Below are positions 225 through 49,727 of a DNA stretch of 64,000 nt, piece after piece. The notes under the pieces were generated by a model. The model searched no databases. It was not told the origin of the DNA and worked only from the letters and a program-made list of their open reading frames with translations. The position numbers and the translations under genes were made by a program. Position 1 is the first letter of the stretch, and each line of letters begins with the position of its first letter. Source of the stretch: Bythopirellula sp. (GTDB taxonomy: Bacteria > Planctomycetota > Planctomycetia > Pirellulales > Lacipirellulaceae); NCBI GenBank assembly GCA_965216565.1, contig OZ244170.1:832001-896000 (forward strand), written 5' to 3'.

Positions 225-253
225 TTGAACAGGAGGGAACTGAGGGAACGGAG
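225..253 (+). repeat. Left arm of imperfect inverted repeat flanking the GxxExxY gene (9-bp GAGGGAACN units)
   Basis: TTGAACAGGAGGGAACTGAGGGAACGGAG matches the reverse complement of 752-780 at 25/29 positions, first 16 identical. Confidence 0.85.
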
Positions 254-285
254 CGAAGGCCCAAGATTAATCCTACTTGCACGGA

Positions 286-691
286 CTACTCCAAATTTGC
301 TCCCGGTAACATCAAACGTGATACACCCTCAGTCAACTTTGGAACATTGAAGTTGATGATCAAGCCAAGTGGAATATCAAGTAATTTCATATAGCTGAGC
401 AATTGAGCCTTATGAATTGGATGAACAGCTTCTACCGCTTTGGCCTCCACAAGTAAGCATTGGTCAACCAAAAGATCGAATTTTAGCGGGGCTTCTCGCT
501 GGAACTGCTTATATCGAATTGTCACGCAGTCTTGTCTTTCAACTGCGTGATCTCGTAGTTCTAACTCCATAGTTAAGCACCACTCATAAATCGACTCGAG
601 TAAGCCCGGTCCTTTATCCCTGTGCACCTCGATCGCTGCACCAATAACGTCGTGGGTTTTTTCTGATGCTTGTTGAAATAAAGGGGTGCAT
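286..691 (-). pseudogene. GxxExxY protein (PD-(D/E)XK nuclease-like) with a +1 frameshift just after its probable ATG
   Basis: GPGLLESIYE motif, FDLLV...VEAKA, QLLSY...GLIINF. ATG at 691 has an AAGAGG RBS but is out of frame by one C in a C4 run (683-686); removing it gives MHPLFQQASEKTHDVIGAAIEVHRDKG. An in-frame GTG ORF runs 286-627. Confidence 0.8.
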
Positions 692-751
692 TCAAGAGAC
701 CTCTTATGGCTAGGAGAACAGGGAAACCCGAGTTAACCAGGAAATCCTATC

Positions 752-780
752 CTCTGTTTTCTCCGTTCCCTCCTGTTCAA
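752..780 (-). repeat. Right arm of inverted repeat flanking the GxxExxY gene
   Basis: Reverse complement reads TTGAACAGGAGGGAACGGAGAAAACAGAG. Confidence 0.85.
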
Positions 781-1070
781 TCAACCCTTCGCCAATCAAC
801 GAATAAATGTGAGGCCTTAGTTTGAGACAAATTCTACTCCTGGAGGTACATCAAAGCACTGTTCTTCGCAAAGTACTTCTCAACCCAGTACGATCGTCAC
901 AAGCCGCACATTGCAATCGAACTCGTGGCTTCTAAGAGAGTAGTCGGCGAACTTGCGGCGTCTTTGCAACATGTGAGCTATGTTTACATGACGCAACGGC
1001 GAACGAATAGAGAAAGTCTGCGAGCACTAATTGCTCCATTCCCCCCAGGCACTATGTAGGAATCACGGCG

Positions 1071-48984: not shown

Positions 48985-49072
48985 GGTGATTGAACGTGAG
49001 AGTATCTTCACACAGCGTATCCTCTCAAAAGCGAAGTAACTAACTCATTGATAAATCACTCCAACTGGAGCT

Positions 49073-49727
49073 GCCCTGAAAGGGCAAGGTACGACAGCCC
49101 AGGGCGCTAGCCCTGGGTGCGGAGAGAACCCAGTATTTAGCCCTGACGGGGCGTCATAATGGTTTGAAAAACGAGTTATTATGGCTCAATCATTGTCCAA
49201 CGTTCTCTTGCATCTGGTATTCAGCACGAAAAATCGGCGTCCCTGGATTGATGCACAAATCGAGTCTGAAATGCACGCCTATTTGGCTTCTGTATGCAAG
49301 TCGCTGGGATGTCCCGCGCAAAAAGTCGGAGGTGTTGAAGATCACGTGCACGTTTTGTGCTTACTCTCTCGGACGATTGAGATCAGTGATTTATTGGGAA
49401 AAATCAAGGCAAACTCGTCACGTTGGATTAAAACCAAAGGGCCAGGATACAGCGAGTTTTCATGGCAAAACGGATATGGTGCGTTCTCAATTGGGCAGTC
49501 CCAGTTGGAAGCTGCCAAAGAGTACATCGCAAATCAAAGGGAGCATCATCGAGGCCGATCTTTCCAAGAGGAGTATCGAGCATTGCTGGAAAAGTACCGC
49601 GTCGAGTATGATGAGCGTTACGTTTGGGATTGAGTTTTAGGCCGCTCCGTTGGAGGTCTGGGTTGTAAATCGATCCCAAACCCAGGGCTGACGCCCTGGG
49701 CTATCGTAGGTCGGCCTTTCAGGCCTG
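49073..49727 (+). mobile_element. Y1 (HUH) transposase cassette bounded by inverted three-hairpin REP-like arms
   Basis: Left arm 49073-49153, right arm 49638-49727 share CCTGAAAGG and TACGAyAGCCCAGGGCG..AGCCCTGGGT in inverted orientation. Confidence 0.85.
49181..49633 (+). CDS. tnpA: IS200/IS605-family (RAYT-like) tyrosine transposase
   Basis: HLVFSTKNR, HUH motif DHVHVL, KANSSRW, WQNGYGAFS, catalytic YIANQREHH; no tnpB. Confidence 0.93.
   Translation: MAQSLSNVLLHLVFSTKNRRPWIDAQIESEMHAYLASVCKSLGCPAQKVGGVEDHVHVLCLLSRTIEISDLLGKIKANSSRWIKTKGPGYSEFSWQNGYGAFSIGQSQLEAAKEYIANQREHHRGRSFQEEYRALLEKYRVEYDERYVWD

Follow-up and report, generated by a model that had tools for sequence, protein, structure and literature searches.

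Positions 225-780 of the stretch of DNA analysed here (the window, 64,000 nucleotides in all) are probably one copy of a widespread selfish insertion cassette, in which a nuclease gene lies between inverted arrays of short words. In what we take, with somewhat better than even confidence, to be its general form, the cassette consists of a PD-(D/E)XK gene of approximately 130 codons, belonging to the GxxExxY family, and of arms that repeat the 7-nt word AAC.RAG every 9 nt behind TTGAACAG. The copy in the window is one instance of a general and apparently unpublished association: searches of the article literature on GxxExxY/PF13366/TIGR04256, DUF559, IVS/S23p and the hairpins of Planctomycetes yielded no account of the element.

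The source genome is a single contig of 5,211,746 bp with 53.6% G+C, in which the window occupies G000:C1:832001-896000. The element is flanked by a DUF362 gene, which ends at 180, and by the gene for a CpaF/TadA-type ATPase at 1071-2387. It comprises the following features:

225-253, no strand: left outer arm, TTGAACAG followed by 9-nt units with the word AAC.GAG (nhmmer arm profile, E 1.4e-5).
752-780, no strand: right outer arm, which repeats the left one in inverted orientation and precedes the gene on the sense strand (nhmmer, E 3.6e-6).
712-729, minus strand: remnant of an inner arm, GGGTTTCCCTGTTCTCCT on the sense strand (comparison with relatives).
286-663, minus strand: GxxExxY/PF13366 frame of the PD-(D/E)XK nuclease fold, 125 codons plus a stop codon at 286-288 (profile matches and predicted fold).
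683-691, minus strand: start codon of the family, ATG at 689-691, and a C run at 683-686 with one surplus base (alignment with 11 relatives).
178-889, no strand: strain-variable block around the element (contig of run X5 compared with the window).

The outer arms, each of 29 nt, are 86% complementary (25/29) and stand 498 nt apart; their first 16 nt (TTGAACAGGAGGGAAC) are exact in both, one on each strand. Read directly, the left arm is TTGAACAG GAGGGAACT GAGGGAACG GAG and the right arm, after reverse complementation, TTGAACAG GAGGGAACG GAGAAAACA GAG, each being TTGAACAG and then 9-nt units of the form GAGnnAACn. The arms enclose a single gene, which is on the minus strand and antisense to both of its neighbours. 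These measurements reproduce the original prediction, which had described 29-nt inverted arms, perfect over their first 16 nt and built of 9-nt units, around one small antisense gene. Its limits of 225 and 780 are indeed those of the arms, but the block that varies between strains is larger (approximately 178-889). In relatives, the inner arm pairs with the outer arm to form a hairpin approximately 20 nt ahead of the ATG.

No recognised transposase family is encoded within the element, and no outer inverted repeat was seen around it in the inverted-repeat list or in the search for outer motifs. Rfam, at gathering thresholds, placed no family on the arms of the window or of six further loci, and found no rRNA match in the 64-kb window. 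Several candidate identities were rejected. The geometry is wrong for an intrinsic terminator, with a T run before the palindrome and an A run after it (direct reading); a coding origin of the 9-nt period is contradicted by the conserved and free positions, which, judging from a reading by hand, do not track the third codon position in any of the frames; and the units, being singletons each with its own arm type, are unlikely to be integron attC cassettes.

The 16-mer at the arm end is present in five copies in the source genome (832225+, 832765-, 2293937+, 2294077-, and 2524268-), where arithmetic gives a chance expectation of approximately 0.002. Two of these are the arms of the window element, two are the ends of a gene-less element of 156 bp (2293937-2294092), and the one at 2524268 stands alone. 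A looser arm regex had 10 matches in the genome and 0 in three 2-Mb shuffles, and a wider word-array pattern had 95, against approximately 12 expected from shuffles. The nhmmer arm profile found 14 arm matches, and with them gene-less palindromes of approximately 75-160 bp at 1184756-1184918, 3712515-3712605, and 4473130. Arms with and without cargo, for which a search had been proposed, therefore both exist in this genome. Viral contigs gave 75 pattern matches, none of which was confirmed, and an exact 24-mer from window 890-930 had 0 matches in metagenome contigs.

The gene product matches PF13366 (PDDEXK_3; E 1.2e-34, 119.6 bits, cut-off 22) and TIGR04256 (GxxExxY; E 7e-38, 129.6 bits, cut-off 35). 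PF13366 is the sole Pfam domain on the protein, and there is no HUH/Y1 enzyme. Across 43 aligned sequences, that of the window included, residues G20, E23, Y26, Q44, D63, E73, K75, Y91, L101, and F105 are invariant, such that the window protein possesses both the G-x-x-E-x-x-Y motif (G20, E23, Y26) and the catalytic set D63...E73-x-K75. With an AlphaFold model (mean pLDDT 94.9), the leading structural matches were all PD-(D/E)XK nucleases: Cas4 SSO0001 (Foldseek E 8.7e-3, TMq up to 0.58), the BpuSI nuclease domain (Z 7.5), Hjc (Z 7.1), and R.SwaI (Z 7.0), middling Z values that support the fold of the predicted model and not a subfamily assignment. A PDB sequence search with the protein returned no match at E<=1. 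That GxxExxY proteins belong to the PD-(D/E)XK superfamily and have no assigned function, as had been asserted from the start, agrees with these fold matches and with the 2012 survey of the superfamily, whose entry for the family gives the function as 'Unknown' (PMC3424549). In the passage of PMC8934634 that concerns it, a GxxExxY domain is called beside a reverse transcriptase, which is a stray domain call.

At E<=0.001, a profile of the 43 sequences retrieved 29,292 cluster representatives, of which 11,336 also passed E<=1e-10. By reading of the list, approximately one-sixth of the best 150 profile matches are proteins of 240-315 aa with two matched stretches; in at least one of the three that were read (P0001, P0002, and P0010), the second domain looks degenerate, with catalytic residues lost. 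Such two-domain fusions hint that the working unit of the nuclease may be a dimer. Some C-termini of the fused proteins run on into arm-like SVSS repeats. Elsewhere in the family, several of the matches from the clade called D below occupy part of an open frame of 348-1062 aa, a length that points to in-frame fusion with a larger gene or insertion into one.

The window copy itself is a relic at an inversion breakpoint. Its start ATG is out of frame with the gene body as a result of the surplus base in the C run, which is absent in 11 of 11 relatives aligned as DNA; all of these read ATGCA-YCC..., translated as MHPLF.QA...THDVIG. The next in-frame start is a GTG at 627, whose use would drop the conserved first helix. 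Since the frame downstream is open and every catalytic residue is kept, the frameshift looks recent. The earlier allusion to a repaired protein is borne out by the surplus base. Contigs of runs X1 and X4 are identical to the window over 1-2400, and are from the same sample, probably the source. With a frameshift at codon 3, this copy is probably inactive, and nothing at this locus need be active.

Inverted arms are also found around the relatives of this gene. A search for related loci yielded 80, with proteins 60-84% identical to that of the window, in Planctomycetota and Verrucomicrobiota and in single MAGs with other phylum labels; 74 of them had 250-nt flanks on both sides. The flank score was the best local alignment of the upstream flank with the reverse complement of the downstream flank. 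Its median was 38.5 at these 74 loci, compared with 17 (maximum 22) when the downstream flank was shuffled, and 67 loci scored above 22 and hence above every shuffle, so that the inverted short-unit flanks anticipated for GxxExxY genes are strongly enriched. When the upstream flank of one locus was paired with the downstream flank of another, the median was 24 and the 95th percentile 45, high scores which indicate that the arms of different loci resemble one another. Nearly all arms read (T)TTGAACAG GAGGnAAC nGAGnnAAC nGAG, or an AAG variant that is common in Verrucomicrobiota; the shared grammar, TTGAACAG and then AAC.RAG every 9 nt, spans both of these phyla and the single MAGs of other phyla. 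A gene-anchored alignment of these 74 flanks on the upstream side, with no pattern imposed, has word columns of approximately 90-99% identity, which equals that of the start codon, and columns between words of approximately 30-50%. At many loci, each flank is itself a hairpin of outer and inner arm, giving the order hairpin-gene-hairpin.

To assess covariation, arms were compared in fixed register in 44 short pairs and 38 pairs of gene size. At the G/A 'type' positions, the two arms match in 87-100% of pairs, versus 53-62% of permuted pairs, and the free spacer positions agree no more than in permuted pairs; the pairs came from a word-fixing pattern, and only the free-position result is informative. 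Patterns of this kind underlie the arm regex, the covariation test, and the strict arm counts presented below. The flank-inversion scores, the flank alignments, the DNA alignment of relatives, and the gene-anchored alignment are free of pattern bias. Because the words are conserved while the spacers are free and without covariation, we infer that the arms would be protein-recognition arrays and not a selected stem.

The source genome contains four GxxExxY paralogs (tblastn), each with its own inverted word arms:

Window element: AAC words.
5088301-5088753: CAC words.
3673114/3673546: ATAGCCACAAAAAGCACGAAAAGT.
2254k: G-rich CGC-type words.

In a ranking of 3314 ORF-derived small 'genes' by flank inversion (median 16, 99th percentile 28), these paralogs stand at 13, 18, 28, and 106. 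Also in the top 32 are four Y1_Tnp (IS200/RAYT-like) genes with Pfam support and one similar ORF without it, two DUF559 genes, two 23S_rRNA_IVP genes, and four small proteins without a Pfam family, between CGC-type arms. The DUF559 genes (3709256-3709713 and 1103668-1104108) and the 23S_rRNA_IVP genes (four-helix-bundle, PF05635; 2957020-2957437 and 1089786-1090281) each lie between their own inverted short-word arms, made of G-rich, TTGAAG, and GAGGCT words. The four ORFs without a Pfam family (G000:C1, 1018531-1019281, 5204760-5205315, 3235864-3236263, and 2259707-2260143) have near-identical inverted arms, TTAAACGCAGAG.TCGCGGAGAAGCAGAGGGCCGCGGAG, in the style of those of GxxExxY paralog B, and two of the four have several hydrophobic stretches. 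At locus L163, AAC arms bracket a small gene unrelated to GxxExxY.

The words differ between clades of the protein. Among relatives of paralog D, 45-55% identical and from the same phylum, flanks were usable at 28 of 29 loci; on reading, 22 of the 28 carried inverted CAC.RAG or CGC.RAG arms and 6 had no clear arms. AAC words, which clade A carries, occurred in the flanks of 0 of these 28 clade-D loci. In a poorly resolved tree of 75 clade-A proteins, the G/A type of the arms changes 4 times and the host phylum 9 times, and within one clade, members labelled with five different phyla all have AAC-G arms. This shows that word type tracks protein clade and, as far as alignments and tree can speak, that gene and arms travel together, inherited and transferred as one. 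Physical linkage alone would produce the same match between clade and word, which does not separate linkage from recognition.

Gene-less hairpins of like grammar outnumber the full cassettes. Of 20 regions sampled arm-first from congeners, 4 contained the gene, 10 were gene-less pairs, and 6 were solo arms. Some of the short forms derive from the full cassette by internal deletion: at L025, in a run of four arm-bounded units approximately 12 nt apart, one has a full 135-aa gene and three, of approximately 200 bp, retain the 5' leader together with the final ~110 nt of the gene. The tandem arrays at L002, whose 158- and 174-bp units each contain a small arm hairpin, have the gene within them. 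Copies within one MAG have 616-698 nt in common, arm spacer letters included. The hairpins of genome G020 differ in loops and spacers, and such differences within one genome are unlike simple recent copy-paste. Elements are also nested in one another: at 9 of the 80 loci the whole cassette is inside an outer pair, GGAACGGCTCAAGAATAACTTCC, and at L166 an AAC arm is nested within a CAC hairpin. The outer GGAACGGCTCAAGAATAACTTCC palindrome family encloses AAC-armed cassettes at, for example, L004, L009, L024, L029, L033, L038, and L047; two 'empty' elements of this family, approximately 100 bp long, are present in the source genome (1754523-1754623 and 3008947-3009050), and the loops of both hold a G-rich mini-hairpin of the DUF559 arm type.

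Relative to six congeners, a block of approximately 8.5 kb (G000:C1:823650-832180, ending at window position 180) is inverted in the source genome, and the GxxExxY element is at its right junction; no arm was seen at the left junction (822900-823720). In the six congeners, cpaF adjoins the homologue of source-genome 823660-824890, no element is present at either junction, and their clade-A genes, where present, are at other positions. The proposed comparison of regions upstream of tadA thus found congeners without the gene there, but no clean empty site upstream of cpaF, gene order having been altered by the inversion. In a near-identical strain, represented by a contig of run X5 with 1 difference in 890-1631, window position 253 is joined to 890 by 293 other letters, which replace 254-889; positions 178-219 are diverged and the arm at 220-253 is kept. 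Homology between the window and run X6 likewise starts at 890. With respect to synteny, which the original prediction had put forward as a test, the gene is thus non-syntenic in the six congeners and the locus polymorphic in a near-identical strain. Since neither flank enrichment nor synteny refuted it, the reading of gene plus arms as a selfish element is supported.

A further site, between the genes for PDH E1 and E2, is where the gene-less hairpin 3712515-3712605 of the source genome sits. This spacer has at least five states across congeners:

G007 (41 nt) and G005 (71 nt): no element.
G192 and G022: CGC-type gene-less hairpin.
G011, G017, and G015: CAC-armed GxxExxY cassette.
G006: decayed cassette retaining the 3' end of the gene.
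G016: DUF559 gene between G-rich arms.
G009 and G001: GxxExxY match between E1 and E2 (coordinates only).

The cassette of G015 has a second one next to it, with arms of GCGAAT words. Element ends at this spacer read ACCACAGAGG...CCTCTGTGGT. No target-site duplication was found at the element ends inspected, among which there was no precise high-identity filled/empty pair. Cassettes and hairpins come and go in operon-internal intergenic spacers and in the loops of other palindromes.

Strict arm counts range from 0 to 30 among 41 relatives, with a reversed control pattern at 0 everywhere, and clade-A genes (at least 60% identity) are present in 10 of the 41 genomes, in 4 as fragments. The two co-occur: the gene is present in 7 and absent from 5 of the genomes with at least two arms, and present in 3 and absent from 26 of those with fewer (odds ratio 12, Fisher p 0.003), values that overstate the association since the genomes are kin and not independent. 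The five genomes with at least two strict arms and no clade-A gene are G009, G012, G019, G020, and G029. Of these, G020 has 30 arms, and G019 has 15 and no GxxExxY match at E<=1e-5; both are drafts, approximately 93% complete. The AAC.AAG arms of G019 (L170-L172, L200-L202) are isolated tail-to-head pairs, composed of an R arm, 25-55 nt, and an F arm, with no partner arms within approximately 3 kb. The original prediction had seen in the gene and its arms a selfish element whose nuclease recognises its own repeats; the single selfish, non-syntenic unit stands, but the reading by the nuclease of its own arms is put in question by the 5 of 12 arm-bearing genomes without the gene and by the like arms found around other, unrelated small genes.

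With regard to mechanism, the most likely reader of the arms would be the nuclease that the cassette encodes, in the form of a dimer that engages both inverted arrays. Cleavage at the arms, or in the DNA that separates them, would then lead host recombination or repair to copy, move, or delete the unit. A PD-(D/E)XK hydrolase alone cannot join DNA, and spread to new sites would therefore need another activity. A bolder proposal, which we advance tentatively and regard as possible without favouring it, is that GxxExxY is the engine of a new class of prokaryotic mobile DNA: the dimer would read a clade-specific 'word code' and cut in a structure-specific manner, thereby driving the insertion, conversion, and loss of cassettes in operon spacers and palindrome loops and leaving behind the highly abundant gene-less word hairpins of many phyla, with DUF559 and four-helix-bundle (IVS-type) genes using parallel arms.

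Other explanations can be set against this one. The hairpins may be an independent repeat family, in which the GxxExxY gene is a homing-type parasite that cuts gene-less hairpins of its own word type and is copied into the loop by repair. We consider this rather unlikely, yet it accords with the excess of gene-less over filled hairpins in the arm-first sample, with the abundance of arms in genomes without a cognate gene, with the nesting of elements in the loops of other palindromes (the GGAACGGCTCAAGAATAACTTCC pairs and L166), and with strain X5, which keeps an arm at the window site around other contents. What speaks against it is that paralogous copies within one MAG share not only arm spacer letters but also 45-200 nt past the gene, as expected if the arms travel with the gene; that some short forms (L025, G006) retain the 3' end of the gene and so derive from filled copies; and that filled cassettes occupy spacers that are simply empty in congeners.

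It is improbable, in our view, that the arms instead act as RNA, with hairpins at its 5' and 3' ends, or a long stem like that of 23S rRNA intervening sequences, that stabilise, insulate, or process a transcript while the nuclease has a separate cellular job in defence or repair. In a predicted fold, the sense transcript can pair the outer arms (dG -177.7 kcal/mol, z -2.92; none of 100 shuffles reached so low a value), relatives have the hairpin ahead of the ATG, elements within operons would be transcribed, and the 23S_rRNA_IVP-family genes of the source genome also have inverted flanks. However, variable positions show no compensatory change between arms, the stem is interrupted every few base pairs, conservation falls on the words and not on pairing, and no Rfam family was found on the arms; clade-specific words, gene-less copies that change sites, deletion derivatives, and arrays would all be left unexplained. 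The view that chance placed an inverted repeat around an ordinary gene of vertical descent has nothing but the low copy number in the source genome in its favour and is already refuted, its probability being negligible in the face of the five 16-mers, the 67 of 74 loci above all shuffles, the 10 regex matches against 0, the non-syntenic and strain-polymorphic gene, the high flank ranks of the paralogs, and the arm counts of 0 to 30 in relatives.

For the selfish cassette, the consequences go beyond this locus. GxxExxY/PF13366 is a very large orphan family, and a consistent genomic context, made up of clade-specific inverted arrays, gene-less hairpins, and filled and empty orthologous sites, offers it a testable role. 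A class of intergenic hairpins scattered through the genomes of Planctomycetota, Verrucomicrobiota, and other phyla would find its explanation in the same context, and the arms would represent a natural modular DNA-recognition code if it is the nuclease that reads their words. Because the window copy is at an inversion breakpoint, these elements matter for genome rearrangement, and in annotation, read-through of the arms yields spurious N- and C-terminal extensions.

The cassette resembles several known systems in part. Free-standing homing endonuclease genes include PD-(D/E)XK examples such as I-Ssp6803I, and here too there is a small nuclease gene that could putatively spread by cutting gene-less alleles; its putative targets, however, are dispersed repeats and not one conserved host gene. 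Insertion sequences and MITEs, for example the Correia elements of Neisseria, have terminal inverted repeats, exist in full and internally deleted forms, and insert into intergenic regions. The window cassette shares the terminal inverted repeats, the short deleted forms, and the intergenic sites, but it encodes no recognised transposase family, showed no target-site duplication at the ends inspected, and has copies that conserve the words alone and not the whole length.

The intervening sequence (IVS) of the 23S rRNA of Coxiella, which carries S23p, is an ORF-bearing element (PMC4990558). As the relevant part of that article portrays it, it has in common with the cassette one small ORF between complementary, stem-forming ends and is regarded as selfish; the cassette differs in lying outside rRNA, in the gap between the DUF362 and CpaF-type ATPase genes, and in its ORF family. 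The IVS-type PF05635 genes of the source genome also carry inverted flanks.

The closest layout is that of REPtrons and TIRtrons, in which RAYT or TIRYT genes are flanked by REP or TIR repeats, a REP being a palindrome of 20-40 bp with a GTAG or CGTC tag (Di Nocera et al., 2013; PMC3733652). The window contains a true example of the RAYT type: a 150-aa Y1_Tnp gene at 49181-49633 (Pfam 7.7e-28), between inverted Acido-Lenti-1 motifs (RF01687) at 49072-49117(-) and 49681-49726(+), an arrangement that points to the Rfam 'sRNA' motif as the REP of the RAYT-type gene in the window. The analogy with RAYT/REP drawn in the original prediction captures the layout of the GxxExxY element but does not extend to membership, there being neither an HUH enzyme nor a GTAG/CGTC-tagged REP. 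Measured against what the text of PMC3733652 relates of such systems, the arms are arrays of 7-nt words with free spacers and carry no tag, the enzyme is PD-(D/E)XK and not HUH/Y1, and the gene is multi-copy, patchy, and common to several phyla. What the cassette shares with REPtrons and TIRtrons, as described there, is a small enzyme gene between inverted short repeats that are also dispersed, gene-less, in intergenic regions, and a repeat abundance that varies strongly between related genomes.
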